From: Candidatus Komeilibacteria bacterium S5_K13
GTDB lineage: Bacteria > Patescibacteriota > Patescibacteriia > UBA1558 > S5-K13
DNA length: 64,000 nucleotides
Reading direction: 5' to 3'
Assembly: GCA_019248485.1 (NCBI GenBank)
Contig: JAEHGL010000001.1
Span: 11,446 to 75,445, forward strand
This document shows, piece after piece, positions 3,220 to 55,165 of this stretch. Every line of letters begins with the position of its first letter. Position 1 is the stretch's first letter. Position numbers and translations under genes: made by a program. Under the pieces are notes generated by a model. The model was not told the DNA's origin, made no database searches, and saw only the letters and a list, made by a program, of their open reading frames with translations.

Positions 3220-5160
3220 CTATTCGCTAAACCTATCTTTAAAATACCACAATAAAATATCCTTGGCAAGTGGCACCGCTATAGCGCTACCCTCTCCACC
3301 ACCATCTATTAAAACAGTTAAAACAATGTTGGGATCCTTATATGGGGCGTATCCAGTAAACCAGGCATGCGTTTTACTATTATTTGCAAATTGAGCTGTT
3401 CCTGTTTTTCCAACCGCCTCTATTGGCAAAGATGACAATCCACGAGAACTTCCATCTGTCACAGACATTCTCATACCCTCTTGAATTAATTTAATATTCT
3501 TTTCTGAAATAAAGCCAGATCCTTTTATCATAATTGGTCTTTTAATAAACTTATCACCAACACCTATTTTGTCTACCACCCTTGGCTCATATAATATTCC
3601 TTCGCTTGCTATAACAGACGTCATCATAGCTATTTGAAGCGGAGTCGCTAATACATCTCCCTGTCCAATGCTTACATGATATGTATCCCCTATATACCAA
3701 GGTTCACCTGTTAATTCTTTTTTCCATTCTTCTGTTGGTAAAAATCCATTCGCCTCCCCAGGCAAATCAATACCCGTCTTTGAGTCAAAACCAAATTTCT
3801 TTGCGTAAAAATTTATTTTTTCCAACCCTAGGCCATAAAAATCACCATACCCACCCCCTATATTATAAAAATAAGTATTAACAGACTCTGCTATTGCTTT
3901 TTTCACATCCGTAGATCCATGACCACCAGCTTTCCAATCTGGGAAAAACCATGCCCCGATATTGATTCCACCCGTACTTAAAAAGGAGGTATTTGCGTCA
4001 GCAATGCCAGATTCAAGTCCTGCGCTGGCCATCATTATTTTGAAAGTAGATCCTGGAGGATATTCTCCAGATATTGCCCTAAAAAACATTGGCTGATCTG
4101 GATCATTTATAAGCGAATCATACTTTTCTTGACTAAGATTTGCTGAAAAAATATTATTATCATATGCTGGCAAAGACACAATAGCCAAAACAGCACCATT
4201 CCTTGGATCAATTGCAACAACAGACGCCTTTGTTAAATTGTGCTTCTTTAAAAGATCTAATAATAAATCTGTTATCTTTATCTGCAATGGCCCATCTATA
4301 GACAAAATTAAATTTTCTCCGTCTATTGGCTTTTCAACTGCCAAAATCTTTTTCTCCCTGCCTAGGGAATCTATCTCTATCTTTGACTTTCCAAAATGTC
4401 CCCTCAATTCTTTCTCATAAACATACTCTAAGCCACTTTTTCCTATTTTATCATCTAAATAATAACCCTCTTTAGATAAATTCGCATAATCTTTTTCTGA
4501 AATTTTTCCTAAATATCCAAAAACGTGCGAAAAATATCCTAATAAATTATACTCTCTTTTAATACCAGTTGTAACTGATATGCCCTTCAAAGTCTTAGAT
4601 AAAGACATTAATTTCATAGCCTCTTCATATTCCAAAGACTCCTTAACTATTCTCGGTTGATAATTTTCCAAAATATTTTTTGAAACATAATCCAATAAAT
4701 TAACTCTTTGACCAATAATTGTTTTATTTAAGGCCTCTTGCGTTTCAAATAATTCCTGCTCATCCTTTGGCAGGTCGGCGGGAATAATTCTAAGAGAAAA
4801 ATTTGCTACATTTTTGAGAAGAGGGTTCATTAGCGAATCATATATCATTCCTCTTTTTGGATCTATTCTCTCTATCCTCATTCTATTGCCCTCAGCAAGC
4901 GATCTATAATAATCTCCTTTTATAATTTGTAAGTAAAAAGCTCTACAAAAAATTAAACTCCACAAAATAATCAAAAAAGACACAAAAACCAAAAATCTTT
5001 TTGTGTTCATTATAACACCCAAATTCCTACCATCTCCAAATGTATTAAAATAATTACCTTCTTCTCTATGGGCAGTATAATCTTTCACATTTAAATCGGC
5101 TTCGTTTGTGGGTTTAACAATAAAATCTGTTACTTCAAAAAAATTCATATTAATTACCAA
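3220..5160 (-). CDS. mrdA: Penicillin-binding protein 2 (peptidoglycan D,D-transpeptidase, MrdA-like).
   Basis: N-terminal TM segment, SXXK active site (GSTFK) and KTGTA motif. It is located in the mreBCD cluster. Confidence 0.8.
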   Translation of the reverse strand: MVINMNFFEVTDFIVKPTNEADLNVKDYTAHREEGNYFNTFGDGRNLGVIMNTKRFLVFVSFLIILWSLIFCRAFYLQIIKGDYYRSLAEGNRMRIERIDPKRGMIYDSLMNPLLKNVANFSLRIIPADLPKDEQELFETQEALNKTIIGQRVNLLDYVSKNILENYQPRIVKESLEYEEAMKLMSLSKTLKGISVTTGIKREYNLLGYFSHVFGYLGKISEKDYANLSKEGYYLDDKIGKSGLEYVYEKELRGHFGKSKIEIDSLGREKKILAVEKPIDGENLILSIDGPLQIKITDLLLDLLKKHNLTKASVVAIDPRNGAVLAIVSLPAYDNNIFSANLSQEKYDSLINDPDQPMFFRAISGEYPPGSTFKIMMASAGLESGIADANTSFLSTGGINIGAWFFPDWKAGGHGSTDVKKAIAESVNTYFYNIGGGYGDFYGLGLEKINFYAKKFGFDSKTGIDLPGEANGFLPTEEWKKELTGEPWYIGDTYHVSIGQGDVLATPLQIAMMTSVIASEGILYEPRVVDKIGVGDKFIKRPIMIKGSGFISEKNIKLIQEGMRMSVTDGSSRGLSSLPIEAVGKTGTAQFANNSKTHAWFTGYAPYKDPNIVLTVLIDGGGEGSAIAVPLAKDILLWYFKDRFSE

Positions 5161-5659
5161 TTATTATAAATCTGTTTCTTGTATTTTTTGAAAATATATT
5201 TGCCAATAAATACAAAAACGCTGAGAATAAAAAAGTCATAATGAATTCTCTAAAAAAATCTTGGGATATAATACCGATACTAGGCGTATATACAAGAGAA
5301 GCATCTGATGCAAATAAAAATACTAAAAAATAAAAAATCAAATTAAATAAAACAATTCCTAAACAAACCAAAATAAAATAAGTAAAAAATCTATCCCCCG
5401 ATAAAAAATTTATAGATATATATCGCATTATCAAAAAAGTAATGAAAAACGCAAAAAAATAAGCACCAAAAAAAAGGGAAAAAATATCCATAAGCAAGCT
5501 CGCACAAAACAAAAAAATAATTGATTTCTCAAAATCTAAAAAAAACATTATAAATAAAGCGATACTAAAAACAAAATTTATTCTGATGTCATGTATTAAA
5601 TGAACTTGAACAAACGCCACAATGATAGCTGGAATGATAAAAAAAAATATATATTTCAT
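5150..5659 (-). CDS. mreD: Polytopic membrane protein, probable MreD.
   Basis: 169-aa multi-TM protein positioned between mreC and pbp2, as in canonical mreBCD-mrdA operons. Confidence 0.45.
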   Translation of the reverse strand: MKYIFFFIIPAIIVAFVQVHLIHDIRINFVFSIALFIMFFLDFEKSIIFLFCASLLMDIFSLFFGAYFFAFFITFLIMRYISINFLSGDRFFTYFILVCLGIVLFNLIFYFLVFLFASDASLVYTPSIGIISQDFFREFIMTFLFSAFLYLLANIFSKNTRNRFIIIGN

Positions 5660-7891: not shown

Positions 7892-8998
7892 TTAAAATAT
7901 GTTTTTAATATTATTTATGATTTTTCCCCCATATCTCGTAAAATCTTTATAAGTTACCAAAACAATCAAAAACATCAAAAGACTAAATCCAATATTATGA
8001 ATAATTGCTTCTAATTTTTGATTATTTTTTTTGCGTCTTATTTTCTCAATTACCAAAAACATTATTCTTCCACCATCAAGAGCTGGGAATGGTAGTATAT
8101 TAATAACAGCTAAATTTATTGATAATATAGCCATAAACTGCAAAATATATTGCCAACCCATAGAAACGGCTCGACCCGTAAAAACGGCGACTCCAATTGG
8201 ACCAGAAACATCTTCTGCGCCATGACCCTGAAACAAACCAATTACTAAATTGTATAAAGCTTCAAATATAGCTATCGTAAGATTTACAGTGGCACGAAAT
8301 CCATAAATTGGCGCCATATACCAAGGATAAGAGACGATTCCTGTGTCTGACAGAGAAACACCTATAATCTTCTTATTCAAAGAGCTGTCTATTTGTTCTG
8401 GCTTAAGAGTTAGTATCTTCTGGGTATTGCTGTTATCTACTAATATCTTGATTTCCGTATCTTGATTATTCTCAATATAATTTGTAAGATCTACGGATCC
8501 ACTAAAAGTTTTATCATCAAGAGAAACTATATAATCTCCCAATTTAATACCTGATTTTTCAGCTGGAGAATTTGGATACACACTTATTACTTGAATCTTT
8601 TGGTCTCTCACTTTTGCATGATTATAATTTCCACTAAGTGATGTTGGAATTCCAATACCAAATCCAATACTTATTAAAACAAATGCTAAAATAAAATTCA
8701 TAAATACTCCCGCAAAAAGAATTATGACTCTTTTCCATATTGGTGCGTTTATAAAGCTATCACTATCTACTTCATTATCTCCTGACTCGCCTTTTATTTT
8801 TACAAAACCACCTATTGGAATAAGGTTTAAAGAATACAAAACTCCATTTTTCTTGATGCCAAAAATCTTAGGGGGAAATCCAAATCCAAATTCTTCAACT
8901 CCTACTCCCAGTTTTCTTGCACTATAAAAATGACCTAGTTCATGAACAAAAACCAAAATTCCCAAAACTATAAAAAAAATTATTATTGTTAATATCAT
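7892..8998 (-). CDS. rseP: Site-2 protease RseP (zinc metalloprotease with PDZ domain).
   Basis: HELGH motif near the N-terminus, multiple TM segments, an internal PDZ-like segment and an LDGG motif. Confidence 0.75.
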   Translation of the reverse strand: MILTIIIFFIVLGILVFVHELGHFYSARKLGVGVEEFGFGFPPKIFGIKKNGVLYSLNLIPIGGFVKIKGESGDNEVDSDSFINAPIWKRVIILFAGVFMNFILAFVLISIGFGIGIPTSLSGNYNHAKVRDQKIQVISVYPNSPAEKSGIKLGDYIVSLDDKTFSGSVDLTNYIENNQDTEIKILVDNSNTQKILTLKPEQIDSSLNKKIIGVSLSDTGIVSYPWYMAPIYGFRATVNLTIAIFEALYNLVIGLFQGHGAEDVSGPIGVAVFTGRAVSMGWQYILQFMAILSINLAVINILPFPALDGGRIMFLVIEKIRRKKNNQKLEAIIHNIGFSLLMFLIVLVTYKDFTRYGGKIINNIKNIF

Positions 8999-9039
8999 AT
9001 TAAATAAATTTCAAATTACAAACAACAAATTACAAAACG

Positions 9040-9125
9040 CCTCCTTCATTTGGACATTTCTCGCCTCGCTGAAGCTACCTGCCTCGACTTGTGTCTATGG
9101 CAAGGCGGGTGGCGAAGCGGGGAAA
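9040..9125 (+). repeat. GC-rich repeat element, copy 1 (~60-85 nt). Core sequence is ...TCGCCTCGCTGAAGCTACCTGCCTCGACTTGTGTCTATGGCAAGGCGGGTGGCGAAGCGGGG.
   Basis: The same sequence recurs at 38335-38415 and 61175-61292 in the same orientation. A diverged partial copy lies inside the CDS at 40003-40044. It is GC-rich in an AT-rich genome and contains internal inverted repeats. Confidence 0.8.
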
Positions 9126-9143
9126 TTTGTCATTTGATATTAA

Positions 9144-9698
9144 TTAGACCGTCATTATCTCTTTTTCTTTTTTATCTGTCATTTCTTCTATGATCTGATT
9201 CTTCTCTTTTGTCATATCATCAATTTTTTTAAATAAGTCAAATTTGTCATCTTCTCCGATTTCTTTATTTAGTTCTCTTTGCTCTGTATCTTTTCTTGCC
9301 TTATCTCTAATTTGTCTTATAGAAACACGCGAATCTTCTCTTTTGTCATGTAAAATTTTTACAAGCGCCTTTCTTTTGTCCTCTGTAGGAGCTTGAACCT
9401 GCACTCTTACAACATTATCTGAAACAGAAATACTCATATCTAAATTAGCCTTAGAAAGCCCTCTTTCAATGTCTTTTAGAATTGATTTGTCCCATGGCTC
9501 TACTACAAGCATTGTTGGCTCTGGCACTGAAATAGATGCAAGTTGTTTAATTGGAGTCTTTGTTCCATATGACTCTACTAAAACATCTTCAATCATTGCG
9601 GGAATTGCTTTTCCAGCCCTAATTTTGTCTATTTCTTCTTTGTAATGATCTATAGCCTTATCATATTCTTGTTTAAAAACGTCTATCATTTGTGACAT
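9144..9698 (-). CDS. frr: Ribosome recycling factor, with an acidic C-terminal extension.
   Basis: IDVFKQEYDKAIDHYKEEIDKIRAGKA...IERGLSKANL is the Frr signature. Confidence 0.85.
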   Translation of the reverse strand: MSQMIDVFKQEYDKAIDHYKEEIDKIRAGKAIPAMIEDVLVESYGTKTPIKQLASISVPEPTMLVVEPWDKSILKDIERGLSKANLDMSISVSDNVVRVQVQAPTEDKRKALVKILHDKREDSRVSIRQIRDKARKDTEQRELNKEIGEDDKFDLFKKIDDMTKEKNQIIEEMTDKKEKEIMTV

Positions 9699-9744
9699 GT
9701 TATTATTGTCCCGCTCTAGAGCGTAGATTTTAATTAATTATATT

Positions 9745-10821
9745 TTATTTTTTTATTTCTCTAAGTCCCGTAAATATATTACTTCCACTATCTTTATCAA
9801 TTAGAATACTGTATATTAGATTTTGACTTGGAAACTTAACACTTATCCATTCTTTTCCCCCATCTATACTTCTATAAAAAGCATTCAATGTAGAATAATA
9901 AATTTCTTGTGAATTATTTGGATTAATTGCTAATCCATAAATATCGACTGCGTTTGATTTTGATAAAAGCTTTAAAGCGCGCCAAGAATTACCACCATTA
10001 TCAGAAATAAACAATCCGTATTGACTTGCATATATAATTGAATCTTCCTTTGACGAATCAAGTGTCATAGCCCTAAAAGATTTTACACCCCTTGGCATAA
10101 CTTCGACATCTTTTTCAACTTCTTTTATTGATTCTGTTATGTCTCTCCAATTTCCTCCATTATCATCTGATTTATATATGCCATTACTCTTTAATCCAAT
10201 ATATATCTTCTTAGAATCTTTTGGATTTATCAAAACTTGATTTACAGAAGAATCAAAACTCTTTAATACGCTCCATTGATATCCCCCATCACTACTTCTA
10301 AGTAATCTTCCGTCACTTATTCCGATGTAAACCATCTGCGTATTAAATGGATCTATGTCTATTGTTTTCAAACTTTTTCCAGACTCAGTGTATGTGTCCT
10401 TCCATTTCCTTGCACAATCAGTGCTTTTGTACAAAACATTACTAACAAGTGCGTAAATAGTGCAAGAATCTTTTGGATCTATTGCAACATCATTTATAAC
10501 ACCCTTTGAAATTAATGTTCTTTGCCATGAGTCCCCCTTGTCTAAAGAATAAAACAATCCGTGCTCTAGCGTTCCTGCATAAATAGTTTTTGAATCGTTC
10601 GGATCTAATTTTAAAAATGTAATCTGAGAACTGTTAAAAAAGGCTCTTGTCTCACCTATATTCAAAAGCTCTGTTTTAGATACCCATTTTGAACCTTTGT
10701 CATAACTTACAAATATTCCTAGTGGCTGACTCTTTTTCATAGATAGATTAAGACTACAAGCTGAAAGCGTGATTCCCAAAGATAGAATCAAAAATACATT
10801 TATAATTTTCCTATAATTCAT
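9745..10821 (-). CDS. Lipoprotein with BNR/Asp-box (SxDxGxxW) repeats. Sortilin/Ycf48-like beta-propeller.
   Basis: Lipobox LSAC. There are seven or more S-x-D-x-G-x-x-W repeats (SYDKGSKW, SLDKGDSW, SSDGGYQW, SDDNGGNW, SDNGGNSW, SIDGGKEW). Confidence 0.6.
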   Translation of the reverse strand: MNYRKIINVFLILSLGITLSACSLNLSMKKSQPLGIFVSYDKGSKWVSKTELLNIGETRAFFNSSQITFLKLDPNDSKTIYAGTLEHGLFYSLDKGDSWQRTLISKGVINDVAIDPKDSCTIYALVSNVLYKSTDCARKWKDTYTESGKSLKTIDIDPFNTQMVYIGISDGRLLRSSDGGYQWSVLKSFDSSVNQVLINPKDSKKIYIGLKSNGIYKSDDNGGNWRDITESIKEVEKDVEVMPRGVKSFRAMTLDSSKEDSIIYASQYGLFISDNGGNSWRALKLLSKSNAVDIYGLAINPNNSQEIYYSTLNAFYRSIDGGKEWISVKFPSQNLIYSILIDKDSGSNIFTGLREIKK

Positions 10822-10850
10822 ATTTTTTTGCCCCGCCCTGGGCGGGATGT

Positions 10851-11861
10851 TTATATTATTAAAATATTTTCCAAAATAATCCTAGGATTTACATTTTGAA
10901 AAATCATTTTTTTAGCACTTAAAATATTTTTATAAAAATTAATAAGCTCTTCATAACTAAACTTTCTTGAAACTTTTGAAATAGACCCCTTTAGAAACTC
11001 GTGTATTAATTCAATTTCTGGATCTAGTTTAAAAACAATTAAATCCCTTGCAATTTTTAGATAATTATCTAACAAATTTTCAAAATATACATATTGATTG
11101 TCTTTGCTGCCGTTTTTTTTGATAATACTTTCAACCCAAAAAAATTTTTCATTAAGCGAGTTATCCATTATTTCAAGCATTTGGGAAAGATTAGTTTTTT
11201 GAATATTCCAACCTTCTTGATCTTTAAAATAATGAAGCGCTATCCCTGGGGATCCTCCTGCAAATTTGGATAGTTCTTTGGAAATATCGCCACCCGCACC
11301 AAGAGATTTCAAATTTTCATAAATTTCATCATCCGATACATTATTGAAAATAATATTTTGACTGCGCGATCTAATAGTTGGCAAAATATTTTCTATTTTC
11401 TCAGCTATTAAAATTATCATAGAGCTCTTACTTGGTTCTTCAATTGTTTTTAGTAGCGCATTGGCAGATTCTTTATTTAATGAGTCGGCATTGTTGATGA
11501 GTCCGATTTTGTATTTTGATCTCATTGGTGTTCTAGACATTCTATTTTGAAAATCTCTTACTTGTTCTATTGAAATATTTTTCTTTCCCTCTTCTCTATC
11601 GACATATATATAATCTGGATGAGAAAGCTTTGATATTTCAATACAATCATTACAATGATTACATGGAATAGAATTTCTGTCCGAACAAAAAATAGATTTC
11701 ACAAAAAGATCGGCCATTGTCTTCTTGCCAATATCACGAGGTCCGGTAAATAAATATGTATGTAAAAAGTCTTGTTTTTCTATGAGCCTTTCCAGATATT
11801 TGACTATGTTTTGATGTCCTAAAATAGGCCAATTCATATTTTGACTAATATCATTTTCCAT
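10851..11861 (-). CDS. holB: DNA polymerase III delta-prime subunit-like AAA+ protein (HolB; a short DnaX is the alternative).
   Basis: GPRDIGKKT P-loop-like segment, a Cys4 zinc module (CNHCNDC) and an SRS/sensor region. Confidence 0.55.
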   Translation of the reverse strand: MENDISQNMNWPILGHQNIVKYLERLIEKQDFLHTYLFTGPRDIGKKTMADLFVKSIFCSDRNSIPCNHCNDCIEISKLSHPDYIYVDREEGKKNISIEQVRDFQNRMSRTPMRSKYKIGLINNADSLNKESANALLKTIEEPSKSSMIILIAEKIENILPTIRSRSQNIIFNNVSDDEIYENLKSLGAGGDISKELSKFAGGSPGIALHYFKDQEGWNIQKTNLSQMLEIMDNSLNEKFFWVESIIKKNGSKDNQYVYFENLLDNYLKIARDLIVFKLDPEIELIHEFLKGSISKVSRKFSYEELINFYKNILSAKKMIFQNVNPRIILENILII

Positions 11862-11899
11862 ATTTTTAAGAATAGCAAATTTTCGACTAAATTACTACC

Positions 11900-13380
11900 C
11901 TGACATCACCTCAGAGGTGCATCACCTCAGAGGTGTTTAGCTGTGGATAACTACTATTGACAATAACTCTATGACATGCTATGTTACTTTATTGTACATT
12001 AACAATTCACTTCAAATTAACAGCAAGAAAAATGTAGAAGACTCTTTAAGAGGAGCTAATCTTTGGCGCCTTGAAAATAAACAAATTGCCATTTTAGCCA
12101 CTCTTCTACAGCTTTCTTGCTGTTAAAAAGGCTCCCTCTGTCAGAGATATTAGTTGACTAAGGAGCCATGATAAAGATGCCGCTTCCCTTAATTCTTTAT
12201 CCGAAATCAACAGAATTCAATTATTAAATAGGTGTTGATTGGTAGATAGAGGATGTTTCCCAACAATGGAGGTAACATGAGTATTCGGGGACAGCCCTAG
12301 ATTCCAAAATAAAAACAATCCCCCGAGACTTGGGGGAAATTCCGAATAGAAAAATTTTTTTGACAAAAGACATCCCTTGCTCCATTCTCCCCTAAAAGCA
12401 CATTACTACACATTAGAGGGATTTTACGGAAGCATGGGTAATATCTTTTGTCACCCGTCTTGTGGTCTTCGCGTCTGTTCAATGCTCTCGAGTTTTTAGC
12501 AAAGATCATTAGACACCCCTGGTGCCCCCATACGCACAGTAAGCGCACTCCCAACAATTGTTGGGAGTGAAAAAAGCGCTACGATATGTGCTGCTGGTTC
12601 TTTGAACCTGCCCTATAGCACTCAGAAATAGCGATGGGGGCTCACCAGAAAAACACCAAAGGCAACCTAGCAATTTTCCGGCTAATCCATGGTAACTCCG
12701 TTTTTTTTAGCGGTAATATCCATAGACAAAACCGGCCTAGGATGCCCGAGTGTGCGGACCAAAAGACTGTTAAGGGTTTACCTAAGGGCGCCCTTTCGCA
12801 CCTAGCTTGGTGCGAGCACAGTTTTGGCCACACGCGGCGACCCATGTCCCTGGCGCCTTCGCTCAATTGCTCATCGGGCTAAAACCTCCGATAAGAGCTA
12901 GAGAATCGTATTGCGAAGGCGCCTAATTCAATCAGTTCACATTGGTCCTTTATTGGATCAAACGGACCAAGGCCTAAAAAGCCCCGGCCTGTGCCAGCAG
13001 AAAGCTGACCAAGGCTCTCAAGTCCGAACCCAATGTGAACTCAAACCCCATTCTCTTTGGGGCTTGAATCGATAAGCGTAAAACAAATTACGCAAGTTGT
13101 TTACAAGCCCCCTTGAGATTTCAAGAAACAACCCCCGCAGTCTAATTGACTAGAGGGGTTAATGAAAGAAACATAAGTTTCTGAGAACCTCACGCCGAGG
13201 AATAATGCCTCTAGATAGAGTGTTCTCAGGGAAGACCGTCCAGAAGTCCTTCTGGACTCTAAACGACAACAAGCTTGACTGTAACCGAAAGGTACAGCCC
13301 GCCACGTCGTTAGACTCCTTAGGACTTCTGGAAAATTTTAACTAAGACCCGTAATACACTGTGGTCTTTTTTATTTGTCA
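11900..13380. ncRNA. Large GC-rich (~50% GC), hairpin-dense noncoding locus. Candidate structured RNA(s) of unknown family; strand unresolved.
   Basis: No credible ORF (the three track ORFs overlap each other on both strands). There are many perfect hairpins, for example CACTCCCAACAATTGTTGGGAGTG, GGCGCCTTCGC...GCGAAGGCGCC, and a long-range pair GTTCACATTGG/CCAATGTGAAC. A + strand promoter-like site sits at about 11957-11985 and a terminator at 13345-13377. Confidence 0.4.
13345..13377 (+). terminator. Hairpin AGACC-N13-GGTCT followed by a T-run.
   Basis: Stem-loop plus TTTTTTATTT at the 3' edge of the GC-rich locus. Confidence 0.45.
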
Positions 13381-13424
13381 GAAACCGACCCTGAGGGTCG
13401 ACCTAAAAATCTGCTCTTGACGAT

Positions 13425-13455
13425 TATATTTATATGTGATAAAATGCTACATTAA
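13425..13455 (+). promoter_or_regulatory. Sigma70-like promoter (TTGACG -17- TAAAAT) upstream of the beta-barrel gene.
   Basis: TTGACGATTATATTTATATGTGATAAAATG, followed by a strong SD AGGGAGG 6 nt before the ATG at 13481. Confidence 0.5.
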
Positions 13456-13480
13456 ATAAAATCAATAAAGGGAGGATATC

Positions 13481-14452
13481 ATGAAAAAAATGATATTTAT
13501 CATCATGTCAGTCTGCCTATTCGCAGGTTTAGTGGCACAAACAACACCCACCACCTCACCCACATTTTATGGGAAACTAATGATGGGAACATGGTACAAT
13601 ACTGGAAATAGTACTTTTTCTGAGCAGATGTATTCCAACTCTCGTCTTGGTATCAGATGGAATAATGGACATTCTTATGACTTCATAGGGGAGATGGGAA
13701 TGAGTCCCAACGGTATTGTGTTAAGAAAACTGACATGCGTCATGAATATCTGGAATGGTTGCGATCTCAAAATTGGGAATGATTGGTTTAGTGGACTTGA
13801 TCAATGCACTAATGGAGCAACTGGCCCCACTTATACATCTGATAGCCCTACAGAATCTGGTCCTGCAGTAATTGCCAGAACACCACAGATAACATTGATA
13901 CACAATGATTTGTATCTTAGTTTTCTACCGGGTATAACGGTTAATCCAACCGGAACAGAGACAACAAAAAGCATTCCCAGACTGGCTGTCTCAAAAAAGG
14001 TTAAAATCTTAGACGTAAATTTTACTCCTGCATTATCCTATGGACATTACTGGGATAAACAAAATTCTTATAATGCCTGGGTGGTCTGTATCACAGCTAA
14101 AAGTAAAATTTTTGATTACGACATTACTACACAAGGATTTATAGCCAATAATTTTGGCGATTTGGGTGGATTAAGTATTGCTCAATCTAACGCAACTGCT
14201 ATTAATCAAAATATTCAATCAGGTGGTGCTTTTGCACAAATTAGATATCAAAACTTTTATGTAGGTGCTGGATATACCAAAAATAAAACAATGGAAACAG
14301 ACGCCGGTACCACGTTTTTCCAATATAACAAAACCATGTGGAAAAATGGAAACATTACATTAACACTAACTCCTGAAATGGGATTGTTCTTTGGAGATAA
14401 TGTCTCCAAAAACACTTTATATTTCGGAAGTAAGTGGACAGCCCAATTCTAA
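13481..14452 (+). CDS. Secreted protein resembling an outer-membrane beta-barrel/porin (C-terminal Phe, alternating hydrophobic strands). GC content is higher than its neighbours.
   Basis: Signal peptide MKKMIFIIMSVCLFAGLVAQ. C-terminus ...YFGSKWTAQF. Strong SD. ~40% GC. Confidence 0.5.
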   Translation: MKKMIFIIMSVCLFAGLVAQTTPTTSPTFYGKLMMGTWYNTGNSTFSEQMYSNSRLGIRWNNGHSYDFIGEMGMSPNGIVLRKLTCVMNIWNGCDLKIGNDWFSGLDQCTNGATGPTYTSDSPTESGPAVIARTPQITLIHNDLYLSFLPGITVNPTGTETTKSIPRLAVSKKVKILDVNFTPALSYGHYWDKQNSYNAWVVCITAKSKIFDYDITTQGFIANNFGDLGGLSIAQSNATAINQNIQSGGAFAQIRYQNFYVGAGYTKNKTMETDAGTTFFQYNKTMWKNGNITLTLTPEMGLFFGDNVSKNTLYFGSKWTAQF

Positions 14453-14475
14453 TCAAGCTGTTAATAAAACATAAA

Positions 14476-14500
14476 ACGGGCTCCATGAGTCCGTTTTTTT
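14476..14500. terminator. Bidirectional intrinsic terminator between the 13481 gene (+) and rnhA (-).
   Basis: AACGGGCTCCATGAGTCCGTTTTTTT, with an A-run on the other side. Confidence 0.55.
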
Positions 14501-14518
14501 CTTATCTCAAAATTAATG

Positions 14519-14917
14519 TCAGATATTGTCCAATGCCTCATTCACAAGCGCATCAGCTTCTTGATTTTTTTCACGTGGTACATGGTGAAAACTAATTTTT
14601 TTAAAACCAATAGCGATATTCCAAATTTGTACAAAAATTATTGCTAATCCCTTATCTTTTACCTTATATTCTCTTTTCATTTGCTTTACAACAAGCTCAC
14701 TATCTAAATAACATTCTACTATTTCTGCATTATGTTTTTTTGCAATCTCTAGTGCTTTAAGAAGTGCACGATATTCTGCTTGATTATTAGTAGTTTTTCC
14801 AATACATTCTTTAAAAAAGTCAATTTTGTTTTTATTTTCATCATAAAGAACACCACCTATTGCAGCAGGGCCCGGATTGCCACGAGAACCACCATCTGTA
14901 AAAGTTATTATTTTCAT
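14519..14917 (-). CDS. rnhA: Ribonuclease HI.
   Basis: FTDGGSRGNPGPAAIGGV...AEYRALLKALE...HVPREKNQEADALVNEAL is the RNase H fold with the DEDD catalytic pattern. Confidence 0.75.
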   Translation of the reverse strand: MKIITFTDGGSRGNPGPAAIGGVLYDENKNKIDFFKECIGKTTNNQAEYRALLKALEIAKKHNAEIVECYLDSELVVKQMKREYKVKDKGLAIIFVQIWNIAIGFKKISFHHVPREKNQEADALVNEALDNI

Positions 14918-15044
14918 AATATTAGAAATAACAAATTACAAATTACAATCATCAGATAAATTCCAATAAACAATATCAAATGACCATTTGAATATTGGAA
15001 TTTGTATATTATCTGTTATTTGGAATTTGAATATTACAATTTAA

Positions 15045-16763
15045 TTATTCAATCTTCTTAAAATCTAATAGATATATTTCCAAACTTCTATTTCCATTCC
15101 ACTCATTTACGCCAAGTTCTACTACTATATCAATTTTATCATTATTTTTTATATCAACAAAATTTTTGCTCATAGAAAATCCAACTACTTTTTTTACTGT
15201 TCCAAACTGATCCACCTGAAGACGTAAGTGATTATCCTCTTTTCCCATAAAACTAATATCATTTATTTTACAATCTTTTATCAGGAACTTTGGTCTGCTA
15301 TTTTCCATCCCAAATGGCTCAAACTTTTCCAAATAATCCCACAGATCCCAATCAATATCTGATAAGTTTATCTCACAATCAAGTGTTGTGCTAGGAGACA
15401 ATTCCAAATCTTTTAACCTTTTTCTAACATCAATTTCGATCAAATTTCGTACCTCTTCAAAATTTTCTTCTTTTACGGATAATCCAGCTGCTGATTTATG
15501 CCCTCCAAAACGCTCTAACTTATCTGCAACCTTGGTTATTACTTCCATAAGATCTATTTCATCAATTCCGCGAACAGATCCTGTCCACAATTTTCCATCA
15601 TGTCCAAAAACAAAACTTGGTCTATAATATTCTTGAGACAATTTTCCAGCAACAAGCCCCACTACTCCAAGATTCCAACTTTTATCATATACCCAAATTA
15701 ACTTCGTATCTTTGTCTACGCAATCAAGCTGACTTTTTGCTTGTGATAAAATTTTATTTGTAATATCTTGTCTTTTTCTATTGTTTAAGTTTAGCTCATT
15801 TGCAATTTCAATGGCTCTTTCTAGATTTTTGGTTCTAACAAGCTCAAATGAAGTATTTGCATGATCTATACGGCCAGCAGAGTTAATACGAGGCCCTATT
15901 TGAAATCCTATTGTAGTGCTATTTATTTTTTCTACATTTGTTCCCGATATTTCATATAACTTTTCAAGTCCAAGTCTTCTTGTTTTTTTCATCACCATAA
16001 GTCCATACTTAACAAGTGTTCTGTTTTCCCCAACAAGAGGCACCATATCAGCAACAGTTCCTATGGCAACTAAATCCAATAACCATTTTTCTGCGATTTC
16101 CTTGTCTTTGTCTGATAAATGACATTTTTCACTTTGCAAAATTCCTACAGCAAACTTATATGCAATACCTACTCCTGCTAAAATATGAAATGGATATTTT
16201 GTCTCTCTCTTTAGCCCTGCATGAATAATTGCATAAGCATTTGGTAGTGTTTCAGGCTCCTTATGATGATCGGTAATAATAACATCAATATTATTCTTAT
16301 TAAACAACTCTACTTCTTCTATATTTGTAATAGCGCAATCGCATGTAATTATCAAATTAAATTTTCTATCTATAATCTCTTGGACAGAGCTCATATTAAG
16401 TCCATAGCCCTCCTTTTCTCTCTGAGGAATATAAACACCTGCTCTTATTCCAATGCTTTCTAATACCTCTACTAGAAGTGCAGAGCTAGTTACACCATCA
16501 GCGTCATAATCACCATAGACAAGCACCTCTTCTTTATTTTCAAGTGCTTTATATACACGCTCCACTGCTTTTTTCATATCAATCAGCAAATATGGATCGT
16601 GGGTATCGTCAATATAATCAGCATTAAAAAACTCATCTATAGCAACTTGAGTATCTATTTTTCTATTTTGGAGCAGCTGCAAAACTATAGGATTCAAATT
16701 TGGAAACCCCTTAATAAATTCTTCACTAATTTTTGGCAAAACATGCCATTTCTTTTTCATCAT
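15045..16763 (-). CDS. recJ: Single-stranded-DNA-specific exonuclease RecJ.
   Basis: DHH motifs (VYGDYDADGVTS, ITDHH) and the DHHA1 C-terminal domain (GGHKSAAG). Confidence 0.85.
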   Translation of the reverse strand: MMKKKWHVLPKISEEFIKGFPNLNPIVLQLLQNRKIDTQVAIDEFFNADYIDDTHDPYLLIDMKKAVERVYKALENKEEVLVYGDYDADGVTSSALLVEVLESIGIRAGVYIPQREKEGYGLNMSSVQEIIDRKFNLIITCDCAITNIEEVELFNKNNIDVIITDHHKEPETLPNAYAIIHAGLKRETKYPFHILAGVGIAYKFAVGILQSEKCHLSDKDKEIAEKWLLDLVAIGTVADMVPLVGENRTLVKYGLMVMKKTRRLGLEKLYEISGTNVEKINSTTIGFQIGPRINSAGRIDHANTSFELVRTKNLERAIEIANELNLNNRKRQDITNKILSQAKSQLDCVDKDTKLIWVYDKSWNLGVVGLVAGKLSQEYYRPSFVFGHDGKLWTGSVRGIDEIDLMEVITKVADKLERFGGHKSAAGLSVKEENFEEVRNLIEIDVRKRLKDLELSPSTTLDCEINLSDIDWDLWDYLEKFEPFGMENSRPKFLIKDCKINDISFMGKEDNHLRLQVDQFGTVKKVVGFSMSKNFVDIKNNDKIDIVVELGVNEWNGNRSLEIYLLDFKKIE

Positions 16764-16790
16764 ATAAAGATTATAGTTGAAATATTGAAA

Positions 16791-16818
16791 TTAGGCAAAA
16801 TAAAAACGGGCAACCCGT
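16791..16818 (-). terminator. Intrinsic terminator after the ferredoxin gene.
   Basis: On the minus strand, ACGGGTTGCCCGT is followed by TTTTTATTTT. Confidence 0.55.
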
Positions 16819-16852
16819 CTCTATATAAAAACTAAACCCTAAATGCTAAATA

Positions 16853-17077
16853 CTAACCCCCTATTTTAATAGCACCATCTGGACAAATTCGCTCACAAGC
16901 TTTGCATTGAATACATAAATCAATATTACATTCTACAGTATCATTACCATATACCCCTCTATTATTGTCTTTTAGGGCAAGGCATTTTTTAGGACATATC
17001 TCTACACAAAGGCTACAGCCCTTGCAGTATTTGAAGTTGTTTATAAATATTTTATTTTCTTTTTGTGTTTTGTACAT
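16853..17077 (-). CDS. 2x[4Fe-4S] ferredoxin.
   Basis: Two CxxCxxCxxxCP motifs (CKGCSLCVEICP and CIQCKACERICP). Confidence 0.75.
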   Translation of the reverse strand: MYKTQKENKIFINNFKYCKGCSLCVEICPKKCLALKDNNRGVYGNDTVECNIDLCIQCKACERICPDGAIKIGG

Positions 17078-17080
17078 TGG

Positions 17081-17186
17081 GTTGGGTGGTTAGAAGGTTT
17101 CAGCCAGAGGCTGATCCGCCTTTGGCGGAAGATGGTTAGAGGGTTAGGTGGTTAGTAATCTATTCTAACCCTACTAACCTCACTAA
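17081..17186. repeat. GGTTAG/CTAACC hairpin element. The left arm is rich in GGTTAG, the right arm in CTAACC(C/T)TACTAACC.
   Basis: GGTTAGAGGGTTAGGTGGTTAG...TTCTAACCCTACTAACCTCACTAATC. Related copies lie at 30311-30378 and 30797-30866. Confidence 0.7.
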
Positions 17187-28958: not shown

Positions 28959-29483
28959 ATGAAAACATTAGTTTTTATCATTGTCATTACCATTATTATG
29001 TTATCCACCGGCTGCAGTGAAAGAGAAGTCTTTTTCAACCTTTTTGGCTATATCGATGATTCATTCAATTGCTCAGGTATATTTATTAGTGCCTCAAAAG
29101 GATACTATGAAGCTTTTGGAGAAAATCCGACTTATGGTTGGGTCATAAATCATGCAGAACATGACTCATTAATCATAAAAACAGAATCATATCTATCTTT
29201 TGCTCGCAGATACAAAGAGGATTCATCAAAAGTATATTACCTTATTGTTAAAAGGGGCAAAGAAAAATGGAACGTACCAATAAATCCTGAGACAAGTCAG
29301 GTATTAGACCTAAATGCTTTTATAACAAAGAATTCAGATGTTGGGGTTACAAAACTACGTAATAGAATTAGATTTTACCTTGACAATAAGTCAAACATCC
29401 AATACATTTTGGACACAATAAATAAGTGTCCAGAAATAAAACAGACAAATATGGCAATCCCATGGAAACCTGGATTGCATTAA
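28959..29483 (+). CDS. Lipoprotein, hypothetical (174 aa).
   Basis: Signal peptide plus lipobox LSTGC. Strong SD GGAGGA. Own terminator. Confidence 0.55.
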   Translation: MKTLVFIIVITIIMLSTGCSEREVFFNLFGYIDDSFNCSGIFISASKGYYEAFGENPTYGWVINHAEHDSLIIKTESYLSFARRYKEDSSKVYYLIVKRGKEKWNVPINPETSQVLDLNAFITKNSDVGVTKLRNRIRFYLDNKSNIQYILDTINKCPEIKQTNMAIPWKPGLH

Positions 29484-30310: not shown

Positions 30311-30378
30311 TTAGTGGATTAGTTGATTAGATAATTAGAAATATATATCCCTAACCCTACTAACCTTACTAATCTAAA
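30311..30378. repeat. GGTTAG/CTAACC hairpin element, copy B.
   Basis: TTAGTGGATTAGTTGATTAG...CCCTAACCCTACTAACCTTACTAATC. Confidence 0.7.
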
Positions 30379-30788
30379 CTCTCGTTGTGTTTTTCTTTTT
30401 GTATAATTCTCCAATGTATAAAATATACTGGAAAACCTACTAATATCATAGCAATGGCAGTCGCTGCCTCTCTTTGTCTATTTGATGTAACTGGATTTTG
30501 ATTTTTATTATTTTCCTGCCAATTTTTGTAATCAGCTAACCACATTGTCATACTTTCCTTATCAGCTTCTGTAAATTGATCACATGTTTTAAGTGCTTCA
30601 ATTTGATTTACAGATTTTGCTAAATATAATTCACTTGGAGCGCCGTTATAGTTCATGTCAGCTTTTGTGAAGACAAATGCTTTTAGCCCAGTATTTACAA
30701 TAGTGACCGATCCTATAATAAAAACTATAAGACCAATTGCTGTCATAAGATACAAATACACAATTCTAACCCAAGGGATTTTAGACAT
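30369..30788 (-). CDS. Hypothetical 2-TM membrane protein (139 aa), inserted between rplK and rplA.
   Basis: ORF with two hydrophobic segments. Bracketed by two copies of the GGTTAG element. Confidence 0.4.
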   Translation of the reverse strand: MSKIPWVRIVYLYLMTAIGLIVFIIGSVTIVNTGLKAFVFTKADMNYNGAPSELYLAKSVNQIEALKTCDQFTEADKESMTMWLADYKNWQENNKNQNPVTSNRQREAATAIAMILVGFPVYFIHWRIIQKEKHNESLD

Positions 30789-46889: not shown

Positions 46890-48686
46890 ATGGAAATAAG
46901 AAATATAGCCATTATTGCTCATGTTGACCATGGCAAAACTACCATTACAGACGCTCTAATGAAGCAAACTGGTATGTCTACTGGTGAGACAAGTATGGAC
47001 AGCAATGACTTAGAGAAAGAAAGGGGTATTACAATATACTCAAAAAATACTTCGATTTACTACAAAGACACAAAAATAAATATTGTTGACACTCCTGGTC
47101 ATGCTGACTTTGGCTCTGAAGTAGAGAGAGTTCTTCGCTCCATAGACTCTGTTGTTCTTGTTGTCGATGCACAAGAGGGGCCAATGCCTCAGACAAAATT
47201 CGTATTAAAAAAATCACTAGACTTAGGACTAAAACCCATTGTTGTAATAAACAAAATTGACAAACCAGCAGCAAGTCCGAGCGATGTTAAAGAAATGGTA
47301 TATGAATTATTTCTAGATCTTGGCGCTGATGATGATCAGCTAGATTTTACTGCGATTTATGCTATAGCGCGCGACGGTGTTGCAAAAAAACATTTACACG
47401 AAGAAGCGCGAGATTTTTCTCCACTTTTAGATATCATCTTAGAAAAAGTTCCTGTCGCTTCCAGTCCTGAGCTTACAAACAAAGAGCTTCTTGTTCAACC
47501 ATTTAATCTAGGCTATGATAATTTCCTAGGACGCTTAGCAATATGTCGTATATATGAAGGAACAATAAATCAAGCCCAAACACTAGTTATCAAAAACTCA
47601 GAAGGAATTGCAAGGCGTGGAAAAATTACAAAATTATTTACCTTTGAAGGACTTATAAAAAAAGAAATTGAAAATGCTTCGGCGGGAGATATTGTAATGA
47701 TCGCAGGGCTTCCTGATATCTACATAGGCGAGACAATTTGTGAAAATGAAAATCAAAAATCGCTTCCAGCGATAAGTATTGATGAGCCTACAATTTGTCT
47801 AAACTTTTTAATAAACAATTCTCCGTTTGCAGGACGTGAAGGAAAATTTGTTACAAACAGACAACTCAAAGAAAGACTTGAAAAAGAATTAGAAATAAAC
47901 GTCGGGCTAAAAATTGATTTCTCATCCACTGAATCTTACAAAGTATTTGGCCGTGGTGAAATGCACATTGCGATTCTTTTAGAAAATTTAAGAAGGGAGG
48001 GCTACGAGCTTCAAGTTTCTCAACCCCATGTAATCATCAAAGAGATTGATGGTGAAAAACACGAACCATACGAAGAAGTTATTATTAATGTACCTCAAGA
48101 AATGAGCGGGGTTATTATCCAAAAGCTTTCAAAACGTCGTGGAACAATGATAGAAATGGAGCCAGAGCATGGAAATCTTAGAATGGTTTTTGAAGTTCCT
48201 ACTCGTGGACTTCTGGGCTACAAAAATGAGTTTGTTGTTGATACAAGGGGTGAGGGAATACTATATTCACGCGTAACGGGTTTTAAGCCATATGCTGGAA
48301 AAATAGACAAGACAGAGCTAGGATCAATGATTTCAATGGCAACTGGAAAAGCGCTTGGATTTTCACTTTATAATATACAGGAGCGTGGGACTCTTTATAT
48401 CAAGGCAAATACAGAAGTTTATGAAGGAATGGTTGTTGGAAATGTTGCAAAGGGAAATGATATGGTTGTAAATGTTATAAAAGGAAAACAGCTTACAAAT
48501 ATGAGATCTTCAAACGCTGATGAAGCAATAAAACTTACTACTCCTCTTGAGATAACTCTAGAGCGTGGAATGAGCATAATGAATGATGATGAATATCTTG
48601 AAATTACACCTCACAATATTAGGCTTAGAAAACAATATCTTACTGAAATTGAACGTACTAGATTTGGAAGAAAAAAAGAAAAATAA
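46890..48686 (+). CDS. typA: Translational GTPase TypA/BipA.
   Basis: IRNIAIIAHVDHGKTT G1, DTPGHADF G3 and NKIDK G4 motifs, plus the BipA C-terminal domain. Confidence 0.9.
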   Translation: MEIRNIAIIAHVDHGKTTITDALMKQTGMSTGETSMDSNDLEKERGITIYSKNTSIYYKDTKINIVDTPGHADFGSEVERVLRSIDSVVLVVDAQEGPMPQTKFVLKKSLDLGLKPIVVINKIDKPAASPSDVKEMVYELFLDLGADDDQLDFTAIYAIARDGVAKKHLHEEARDFSPLLDIILEKVPVASSPELTNKELLVQPFNLGYDNFLGRLAICRIYEGTINQAQTLVIKNSEGIARRGKITKLFTFEGLIKKEIENASAGDIVMIAGLPDIYIGETICENENQKSLPAISIDEPTICLNFLINNSPFAGREGKFVTNRQLKERLEKELEINVGLKIDFSSTESYKVFGRGEMHIAILLENLRREGYELQVSQPHVIIKEIDGEKHEPYEEVIINVPQEMSGVIIQKLSKRRGTMIEMEPEHGNLRMVFEVPTRGLLGYKNEFVVDTRGEGILYSRVTGFKPYAGKIDKTELGSMISMATGKALGFSLYNIQERGTLYIKANTEVYEGMVVGNVAKGNDMVVNVIKGKQLTNMRSSNADEAIKLTTPLEITLERGMSIMNDDEYLEITPHNIRLRKQYLTEIERTRFGRKKEK

Positions 48687-49269
48687 ATATAGAGTTAAAT
48701 CAACAAGACTAAGTTACTGGGATTATTCTAATCCTGGTTTTTATTTTGTCACAATATGTACTAAAGATAGAAAAAATATGTTTGGTGAAGTTAAAGATGA
48801 AAAGATGATTTTAAATAGATTAGGATATATTGTAAAACATTGTTGGCGTGATTTAACAAATCATTATAAAAATTGTAATTTAGATTCGTTCATTGTAATG
48901 CCGAATCATTTACATGGAATTATTAAAATAAAAAATTTCAATTCTAATGAACCCGTAGAGATGGGTTTACAACCTAGTGTAGCGATTCGCATCGCACCCG
49001 TAGAGATGATTCATGAATCATCTCTACGCGAATCGCCAAACAATAATTACAAAATAGAAAGGCGTAAAATGTTGTTATCAAAAATTGTCGGTAGATTTAA
49101 AATGCAATCATCTAAAAAAATAAATCTAGTAAATCGTGCAATACATTTTCATTGGCAACTAGGATTTTATGATCACATAATACGTATAGAATTTGATTTA
49201 TGGAAATCTAGAAAATACATAATAGATAATCCAGCAAATTGGAAAAAAGATAATAATTATAGAAAATAA
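48583..49269 (+). mobile_element. REP-associated tyrosine transposase (RAYT, IS200-like Y1 HuH). The N-terminal 27 codons overlap typA and are probably not translated; the likely start is the TTG at 48664.
   Basis: YWDYSNPGFYFVTICTKDRKNMFGEV..., HuH motif MPNHLHGII, and C-terminal WQLGFYDHIIRIEFDLWKSRKYIIDNP. An internal GC-rich palindrome TAGAGATGATTCATGAATCATCTCTA lies between the HuH and Tyr regions. Confidence 0.7.
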
Positions 49270-54211: not shown

Positions 54212-54316
54212 ACATTAATCTTACTCCTTTTAAAGAAATAAAGCACCTAATACATGTTGACAAACTCACATATGAATGGTAATCTGTCATATTAATAAAA
54301 ATCCATGGAGGATAAA

Positions 54317-55165
54317 ATGAAACAAGAGCAATTAGTCGGCCGATTACCCCTTACAAATAGTGGGGAATTACAAACTTTCTTCTTTGGCGTTGGATCTGCT
54401 AGTGCGATCAAACATTTCCAAAACAACTTTGTTATAATCAAGGGAAATCAACATATATCTGTTGACCTTGGAAACAAATCTCAGCTTGCCCTTGAACATA
54501 TAGCTGGGCTCAAGATGACAGATATTGAATTCTTTTTACCCACCCATTCACATGCTGATCATGTGGGTGGAATTGAAACCTTTGCTTTGGATAGTAGATA
54601 CGTAGGCATTCCTCGTTTAGGAAAGGAAAAACCAAGCGTCATTATCACAGAGGAATATCAAAGAATTCTTTGGGATGATACCTTGCGTGGAGGAATTTGT
54701 TTCAATGAAAGAGAAGAAGAAAATAAAAGGAATCTCTGCTTTGGAGATTATTTCAATGTTATTAGGCCGATTTGGAAACAAAAACAACCCAGAGAAATTT
54801 GGGAGCTTGATTTAGGTGGAATACACTTGGAAATTTTCCGGACCAAGCACGTTCCAGACAGTGCTGAAACCTGGGAAACATCCTTTGTTAGCTATGGCCT
54901 ATTTGTTGACGGGCATGTATTTATTTCCTGCGACACCAGGTTCGACATTGATCTGATAAACATGTATGCGAGTAGATCTTCAGTCATGTTTCACGATGTT
55001 CAATTCTTCAATGGTGGTGTACACGCATCCCTTGATGAATTGAGAACTCTTCCAGCGGAAATCAAGGCAAAAATGTACCTTATGCACTATGGCGACAACT
55101 GGGAGACTCAAGATATCACCGGATTTGCCGGACTGGCTCAACAAGGCGTTATTTATACGCCCTAA
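54317..55165 (+). CDS. MBL-fold metallo-hydrolase.
   Basis: LPTHSHADHVGG (HxHxDH) motif. SD GGAGGA. The track start at 54305 is in frame, but the ATG at 54317 has better SD spacing. Confidence 0.75.
   Translation: MKQEQLVGRLPLTNSGELQTFFFGVGSASAIKHFQNNFVIIKGNQHISVDLGNKSQLALEHIAGLKMTDIEFFLPTHSHADHVGGIETFALDSRYVGIPRLGKEKPSVIITEEYQRILWDDTLRGGICFNEREEENKRNLCFGDYFNVIRPIWKQKQPREIWELDLGGIHLEIFRTKHVPDSAETWETSFVSYGLFVDGHVFISCDTRFDIDLINMYASRSSVMFHDVQFFNGGVHASLDELRTLPAEIKAKMYLMHYGDNWETQDITGFAGLAQQGVIYTP

Follow-up and report, generated by a model that had tools for sequence, protein, structure and literature searches.

Why should a gene for what looks like an outer-membrane porin sit in a reduced, AT-rich genome whose gene content resembles that of the candidate phyla radiation (CPR)? 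The question is raised by P0001, a 323-residue protein encoded in a 64,000-nucleotide stretch of Candidatus Komeilibacteria bacterium S5_K13 (contig JAEHGL010000001.1). This whole stretch is called the window below, and coordinates are window positions unless another locus is named. We conclude that P0001 is very likely an exported, functional and accessory protein with a porin fold. It is a genuine but divergent porin of the classical 16-stranded superfamily, from a small branch related to the proteins of Pfam family Porin_4 (PF13609). In which lipid layer such a pore would work is a separate matter, on which our preference is tentative. The gene, its signals and the predicted parts of its product are as follows.

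13481..14452 (stop codon included), + strand: open reading frame (ORF) of the porin-family protein, 323 amino acids, taken from the ORF list; the identical protein occurs on three independent contigs
13481..13540, + strand: predicted Sec signal peptide, residues 1-20, cleaved at VAQ/TT (the slash marks the cut), from the sequence, a model helix at residues 2-21 and homologues with equivalent sites after AQ or AE
13541..14449, + strand: predicted mature 16-stranded beta-barrel, residues 21-323
13784..13879, + strand: loop of 32 residues (102-133) that joins strands 5 and 6 where porins have their L3 constriction loop; located by the model's DSSP string
14414..14449, + strand: final strand, TLYFGSKWTAQF (residues 312-323), whose Phe-terminated end resembles a beta-signal, from sequence and model
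13417..13445, + strand: promoter-like site of sigma-70 type, TTGACG, 17 nt, TAAAAT, with an extended -10 TG; 10 of 12 positions match
13470..13475, + strand: Shine-Dalgarno (SD) sequence GGGAGG, 5 nt ahead of the ATG; homologues share the core GGAGGAT
14473..14504, + strand: hairpin and T-run terminator, with an A-run and a T-run on its sides; hairpin and T-run are identical in strain L015
13389..14534, no strand: cassette of ~1.1 kb (promoter, gene, terminator), missing at the syntenic site of GCA_964636855.1

The signal peptide was assigned by a rule-based reading of the sequence: MKK, a hydrophobic core of 15 residues and VAQ/T make up the standard signal peptidase I pattern. The mature protein is rich in Thr, Gly, Asn, Ser and aromatic residues, has no stretch resembling a transmembrane helix (maximum hydropathy over 19 residues, KD19, of 0.87) and ends in ...YFGSKWTAQF. 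Its predicted strands alternate hydrophobic and polar residues and present one hydrophobic and one polar face. A preliminary description of this DNA had reported a 323-residue protein with a cleavable signal peptide, alternating amphipathic beta-strands and a C-terminal aromatic residue, and all three are present. It had also credited the gene with its own sigma-70 promoter. A promoter-like site does exist. Such matches in themselves do not exceed the expectation from shuffled sequences (5 found, 6.2 expected), but the 72 nt before the ATG (13409-13480) are, like the terminator, 100% identical in strain L015, whose ORF differs at 9% of bases. The terminator is probably bidirectional and serves the convergent RNase H gene too, since an A-run and a T-run flank its hairpin.

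The evidence for a porin fold comes from structure prediction and from homology. An AlphaFold2 (AF2) model built from an 11-sequence alignment (pLDDT 77.8, pTM 0.75) has 16 long antiparallel strands, in which two-residue turns alternate with longer loops; this pattern and the amphipathic strands are compatible with a membrane barrel. When the model was compared with known structures by Foldseek, almost all of the top 50 PDB matches were outer-membrane porins, and a few were proteins engineered from them. The loop at the L3 position has a pLDDT of 42-54, and its conformation is of low confidence; G127, which lies in it, is nearly invariant in the family. Prediction from the single sequence reached a pLDDT of only 31.

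Homologues of P0001 are rare and remote. A word-indexed search of 5.8 billion proteins found P0001 itself as the sole match; when 1.84 billion cluster representatives were scanned exhaustively with HMMER, eight relatives came up (E 2.5e-28 to 4e-5). A scan of GTDB added one more, P0012 at locus L006; a metagenome scan and a scan of IMG/VR returned no family members. P0001 has no match in Pfam even at E<=10, none in NCBIfam and none in PHROGs, and a search of PDB sequences with the family profile gave a spurious match to T4 gp59 (E 0.024) and nothing else. A curated porin model is reached only transitively: P0010 (GCA_021737275.1) scores 30.4 bits on Porin_4, where the cut-off is 27, and the clade of P0001 aligns to the group of P0010.

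The family falls into two parts. A low-GC clade comprises P0001, P0003/P0012, P0004, P0005, P0006 and P0009, from loci of 28-31% GC where DNA is available, and its genes have housekeeping or CPR-typical neighbours (pilus ATPase, pilin, TrmB, a CarS-like enzyme, FtsH, Sua5 and an orphan protein of 1433 residues). The other part, P0007, P0008, P0010 and P0011, is referred to here as the diderm group; the three of its contigs that were read are SD-using loci of 34-43% GC. In this group P0007 directly follows pstSCAB-phoU and P0008 adjoins a TonB_C gene. The two parts align over their full length (hhalign 99.8%, E 2e-30), and a neighbour-joining tree separates the low-GC clade from the diderm group with 85% bootstrap. 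Because the groups are homologous throughout yet separate in the tree, P0001 falls into a small porin lineage, deeply divergent, with ordinary diderm porins as its closest outgroup, and on these sequence relationships the ancestry of the cassette is placed among porins of SD-using diderm bacteria. Members of the low-GC clade form at least six clusters at 50% identity and keep intact ORFs, signal peptides, SD sequences and motifs at 22-32% identity; the motif PE[IV]GYFWG is one that is conserved among members sharing no more than this. A terminal aromatic residue (F) is kept in three of seven members, and the others end in M or K or carry an extension. The barrel that the preliminary description had read from sequence statistics is thus supported by the 16-strand model, the full-length homology to diderm porins and the Porin_4 match of P0010; the soluble beta-sandwich that it had set against the barrel is not what AF2 predicts.

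As a separate observation on the family, the database start of P0005 is an internal ATG. Its ORF extends 12 codons upstream in L002 (7412-7447), to an ATG with a AAGGAGGAT SD, and moving the start to 7412 restores a full signal peptide, MKTFCIIIILLTMVATVSAQ.

That the gene is accessory follows from comparison with close relatives. The assembly GCA_964636855.1 (locus L012) is ~83% identical to the window in nucleotide sequence across the flanking genes and has the same gene order (Tmk ... Tsf-PyrH-PSP1-Fer4-RecJ-RNase H). There, RNase H is followed by ~95 nt and then by the 3' end of a GC-rich locus described below; the porin cassette is missing. Homology between the two ends at ~13388, past the terminator of the GC-rich locus, and from ~14535, a position within the RNase H gene, they align again. 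Neither a target-site duplication nor a terminal inverted repeat could be detected at the cassette ends. The ~1.1-kb unit of promoter, gene and terminator is an insertion or deletion between close relatives, and the porin gene is accessory rather than core. In L012 the short spacer after RNase H (10403-10478) is made up of degenerate GGTTTAG/GAGTTTAG repeats, behind which comes a bidirectional hairpin terminator unlike that of the cassette.

That the gene is functional is indicated by a second strain, L015 (run SRR30464888), in which the porin again lies beside RNase H and RecJ and its ORF is 91% identical to that of the window. Between these two ORFs dN/dS is 0.23 (Sd 45, Nd 44; 89 substitutions), and we take the gene to be functional because of this ratio and of the intact reading frames across the clade. 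Over the aligned region (window 13379-17170, L015 1-4342), RecJ is 100% identical for 1.2 kb (15054-16253), and the block of porin and RNase H is 5-20% diverged, with RNase H itself at 5-8%. This pattern is a recombination mosaic. A reading of the porin ORF as a hotspot of hypermutation or diversification was considered and rejected: the raised divergence spans RNase H too, and the spectrum is dominated by transitions and is not adenine-specific. L015 also carries an extra segment of ~435 nt, with an ORF of 144 residues, between RecJ and the ferredoxin gene.

The preliminary description had seen the gene either as horizontally acquired, for which it cited the SD (AGGGAGG), a GC content of ~40% and the adjoining GC-rich locus besides the promoter, or as a genuine envelope feature, and had described the genome as SD-poor. 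The last point is confirmed: 49 of 55 genes in the window have no SD core of at least 4 nt, and only three have one of at least 5 nt. The porin SD is also real, and it is not peculiar to the window. GGAGGAT stands 4-6 nt before the ATG in every family member for which DNA is available (the window, L002 with its corrected start, L005, L006, L007, L016 and L017), and of 17 genes in L006 none but the porin gene has an SD. Since GGAGGAT is kept across the family at 22-32% protein identity, the SD is not a mark of recent import; its conservation argues for selection on efficient translation.

The composition of the gene is likewise a weaker sign of import than it had seemed. Its GC content is 37.2% rather than ~40%, compared with 31.5% for the window and 31.4 +/- 3.2% for the mean of its genes, and the 41% of the corresponding 1-kb composition window includes part of the adjoining GC-rich locus. 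At second codon positions the GC fraction (GC2) is 0.43 against 0.32, reflecting a composition rich in Thr, Gly, Ser and Ala. At third positions the excess is in C only, with C/(C+T) at 0.335 against 0.173 and G/(G+A) not raised; genes on the + strand have a third-position C of 0.134, those on the - strand 0.072, and the porin lies on the minority (+) strand. Its third-position GC (GC3) of 0.316 nevertheless exceeds the 0.15-0.24 of six + strand housekeeping genes, and its composition matches that of the diderm-group genes (GC 37-38%, GC3 0.28-0.30). The anomaly is real but modest, and the argument from GC content for horizontal transfer is weakened, because the excess is partly amino-acid composition and partly strand bias.

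Several other genes of unusual composition or with a strong SD deserve mention in their own right. An orphan lipoprotein of 174 residues (28959-29483, + strand; lipobox LSTG/C, no family match) has one of the three strong SD sequences of the window (GGAGG), lies, like the porin gene, on the minority strand and shows an increase in third-position C (GC3 0.287). The most GC-rich gene of the window (54305-55165, + strand; 40.4% GC, GC3 0.371) has no SD and encodes a protein of the metallo-beta-lactamase (MBL) fold that scores 94 bits on Pfam Anti-Pycsar Apyc1, with a cut-off of 50; a cyclic-nucleotide phosphodiesterase of phage type and a host enzyme resembling RNase Z are both conceivable identities. 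In the SD-poor L002 (for example 248-907 and 4497-5189) and L007 (for example 8651-9727, 43% GC), GC3 is likewise raised in the few remaining genes that have a strong SD, and the presence of an SD and atypical composition seem to go together genome-wide.

The third argument for import concerned the GC-rich locus upstream of the porin (window ~11881-13440). It has no ORF above 86 residues and a GC content of 45-53% in a genome of 31%, and on either strand most windows of 240 nt give minimum-free-energy z-scores of -4 to -6, compared with ~0 in flanking genes. Rfam gave no match at E<=1, and neither a tRNA nor a tmRNA was found. Two signals were noted in it.

11957-11985: promoter-like site TTGACA, 17 nt, TATGTT
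near 13350-13375: terminator-like hairpin

Identity to the corresponding region of L012 (~10479-11506) is 87% for the initial ~300 nt and 83% for the final ~225 nt. Between these lies a part that cannot be aligned and is ~400 nt shorter in L012, most of whose region is likewise GC-rich and structured. A metagenome scan with the conserved 3' motif found nothing. The locus looks like a candidate for an undescribed structured RNA of ~1.0-1.4 kb. It belongs to the resident genome, since it is conserved in L012 without the porin and is absent from the loci of the other porin family members; for the same reason we rejected the idea that porin and GC-rich locus form one imported island, and the locus lends no support to import. 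Of the case for acquisition there remain the homology to diderm porins and the accessory nature of the cassette; the argument from GC content is weakened, and those from the GC-rich locus and the SD are not supported. Between the start of holB and the promoter-like site of the locus lies a tandem direct repeat (11907-11940), two copies of CATCACCTCAGAGGTG, each a small hairpin (CACCTC-A-GAGGTG).

If the gene is a working porin gene, the signals around it suggest how it would be used. A sigma-70-type promoter of its own would drive its monocistronic transcription, and its mRNA would be translated efficiently through a canonical SD that is kept even where ~90% of host genes have none. The precursor would be exported by Sec and cleaved after VAQ20. 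According to the model, the mature protein would form a barrel of 16 strands, girdled by a hydrophobic belt, with short turns at one end and long loops at the opposite end, and with a loop of 32 residues at the L3 position. Placed in a lipid layer outside the cytoplasmic membrane, such a barrel would let solutes diffuse passively through a water-filled channel. A porin is normally found in its own producer cell, and the genes for diderm porins are typically monocistronic, strongly expressed, strain-variable and recombining (ompC, nmpC and Neisseria porB, for example); the genetics of the P0001 cassette would fit those of an ordinary porin. We therefore lean, without firm confidence, towards a porin that works in an outer lipid layer of its own producer, and regard the premise of a strictly monoderm host without a beta-barrel assembly machinery (BAM) as the weak link.

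A number of observations weigh against that preference. None of the genes looked for in outer-membrane biogenesis or tethering (BamA/POTRA, TamB, LptD, Skp, LolA, TolC, secretin, OmpA/Pal) was found in the window and in L002, L006 and L007 (~113 kb in all), and none was seen in the syntenic relative L010 either. This is weak evidence, because a small diderm genome would show no such gene in ~113 kb with a chance of 10-30% by our own rough estimate. Such envelope genes as do occur are of a monoderm or CPR kind (YibE/F, DUF2207, Gmad2, Beta_propel, DUF5671 and a PrsA/PpiD-like foldase); they include a pilin and the ATPase of a type IV pilus, unaccompanied by any visible secretin. The literature treats Patescibacteria as devoid of both outer membrane and porins (10.1101/2021.05.31.446380; PMC12102498). 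The family is also oddly rare for a core envelope protein of a whole lineage, with nine representatives among 1.84 billion, and the loss of the terminal aromatic in four of seven low-GC-clade members could mean a relaxed dependence on BAM.

Other features bear on what the host is. Its gene content, 31.5% GC and compact genes make it plausibly CPR-like. Nucleotide-salvage genes are present (Tmk, ThyX, Dut, dCMP deaminase, kinases), and TrmB and a CarS-like protein occur in related loci. Lineages using code 25 or code 4 are argued against, since the ORFs stay open under the standard genetic code. The membrane-anchored foldase scores far below the cut-offs of its nearest NCBIfam models, which we take to be those of PrsA foldases. 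A search for sortase and LPXTG motifs in large surface proteins found none, a result that is uninformative on monoderm status. The FtsH of L006 scores 648 bits to one PDB chain, presumably that of Thermotoga, and 562 to another, presumably that of E. coli; these scores conflict with the title of the L006 metagenome-assembled genome, 'uncultured Gammaproteobacteria', and we judge the title unreliable on their account. As an aside, the gene for the DUF5671 membrane protein (30369-30788, - strand) lies between rplK (L11) and rplA (L1) in an otherwise canonical nusG-rplK-rplA cluster.

The alternative that survives best gives the pore to another cell. A monoderm, BAM-less episymbiont would export the porin to the contact zone or on vesicles; from there the barrel would enter a diderm cell's outer membrane, be it that of a host or of a neighbour, and serve as a conduit for small solutes. 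We consider this unlikely. It would suit the monoderm, CPR-like gene content of the window and of the homologue loci, where no outer-membrane machinery is visible; it would suit an accessory, strain-variable gene, as host-interaction genes often are, and the relaxed terminal aromatic of the beta-signal in the clade. Some Patescibacteria parasitise diderm Gammaproteobacteria, and vesicles of ~20 nm have been seen around one such epibiont (10.1101/2024.03.08.584096). More speculatively, the conflict between the title and the FtsH of L006 could stem from co-binning with a host. Against it stand the absence of an evident route across the producer's own wall and of any secretion-system or adhesion gene linked to a family member. 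Insertion of porins in vivo normally requires BAM, and we know of no case in which a monoderm delivers a classical single-chain porin to another bacterium. Slightly more doubtful still is a particular form of the idea, in which a monoderm, BAM-less episymbiont of Patescibacteria type keeps the porin under purifying selection as a feeding channel in the outer membrane of a diderm partner or in shed vesicles, or, as a variant, in which a CPR-type lineage has an outer lipid layer populated by porins.

Next comes the view that the cassette is a passenger, derived from a diderm bacterium and persisting in a monoderm genome without useful function, unexpressed or tolerated. Its presence or absence among close relatives, its atypical GC3 and SD usage and the lack of a linked partner gene are what such a passenger would show. 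However, a dN/dS of 0.23 over an intact ORF of 323 codons is not, and promoter, 5' untranslated region and terminator are perfectly conserved while the ORF is 9% diverged. The low-GC clade, moreover, has kept its ORFs, signal peptides, SD sequences and motifs through at least six clusters, and its separation in the tree with 85% bootstrap argues for long residence over repeated fresh imports. We hold this view to be improbable. No phage, integrase or transposase genes flank the cassette, which lies between HolB and the structured RNA-like locus on one side and RNase H and RecJ on the other, and searches of phage genomes and plasmids (tblastn), IMG/VR contigs and PHROGs gave no match to the porin. 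Phage-encoded porin folds do exist in BFVD (E 6e-9 to two phage porins). Elsewhere in the window, an ORF of 228 residues (48583-49269, + strand), which overlaps the 3' end of bipA by ~100 nt, has a weak match to IS200-like Y1 transposases (E 3e-4, below cut-off) and may be a REP-associated or degenerate transposase.

A misfolded prediction and an assembly artefact, taken jointly, are very improbable. In the former case P0001 would be a soluble secreted beta-sandwich or beta-propeller that merely mimics the sequence statistics of outer-membrane proteins, and both the lack of a Pfam, NCBIfam or PDB sequence match for P0001 itself and the pLDDT of 31 from its single sequence would allow this; the full-length homology to Porin_4-type proteins and the hydrophobic outward faces of the strands make it a very slight chance. 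Slighter still is the chance that a diderm porin gene was misjoined to this contig or binned with it, as a composition and SD unlike those of neighbouring genes might suggest: misassembly is ruled out in practice, since the identical protein occurs on three contigs of up to 78.7 kb (the neighbours being shown for one, the window's own record) a fourth contig, from an unrelated sequencing run, has a variant of 91% identity next to RNase H and RecJ, and the flanks align cleanly to L012.

The location of the pore matters beyond this locus. Porins are regarded as a signature of two membranes, and the branch of CPR and Chloroflexota is cited as having lost porins together with the outer membrane. 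A porin subfamily under purifying selection in reduced, AT-rich, SD-poor genomes would imply that some lineages are not strictly monoderm, or that porins have found a new use, for instance at the interface of epibiont and host; either outcome would bear on the loss of outer membranes and on nutrient uptake by tiny symbionts. Should the whole genome turn out to contain BamA, P0001 would simply stand for a novel and highly divergent family of porins from a poorly sampled diderm lineage, which would be of modest interest. If the host is truly a BAM-less Patescibacterium, the paradox is real and a pore directed at a partner cell would be favoured. The conserved SD of the family in SD-poor hosts also offers a natural test case for how ribosomes handle SD-led mRNAs.

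Among known systems, P0001 is closest in architecture to the classical 16-stranded porins (DcaP, OmpF/OmpC/OmpK36, Omp32, PorB, OmpT/OmpU of V. cholerae, OprP). It resembles them in its 16 predicted strands, the alternation of turns and loops, the long loop at the L3 position, the Sec signal peptide and a last strand that ends in Phe. It differs from them in sharing only 10-16% identity, in having no direct hidden Markov model match to any porin model, in a mature part of ~300 residues, at the small end of the range, and in a host that shows no outer-membrane machinery in the parts of the genome that were read. In contrast to OmpM, the porin with S-layer homology (SLH) domains that tethers the outer membrane of diderm Terrabacteria, P0001 has neither an N-terminal SLH domain nor a coiled-coil stalk: its first strand starts at residue 28, seven residues past the predicted cleavage site, and there is no SLH match.

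The cassette itself recalls the 'moron' porins of temperate phages (Lc of PA-2, NmpC of DLP12), which are likewise single porin genes with their own promoter and terminator, of atypical composition and present or absent among close relatives; unlike these, the P0001 cassette is not in a prophage or phage genome. In sequence, the nearest relatives are the Porin_4 (PF13609) diderm proteins P0010, P0007, P0008 and P0011, to which the low-GC clade is homologous over its full length. Both share the motifs R..G in strand 4/5, GR before strand 6, PEVG.. in strand 15 and Y.G in strand 16, as well as the GGAGGAT SD upstream. The low-GC clade nevertheless forms its own branch, marked by shorter loops, the motif PE[IV]GYFWG and frequent loss of the C-terminal aromatic, and its genes stand alone among housekeeping genes, whereas those of the diderm group lie beside transport operons; the position of P0007 after pstSCAB-phoU resembles that of the phosphate-regulated porins PhoE and OprP. 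Fold and superfamily are thus already known, and what is new is a very divergent and very rare subfamily, carried as a stand-alone, SD-bearing cassette in reduced, AT-rich, SD-poor, CPR-like genomes.

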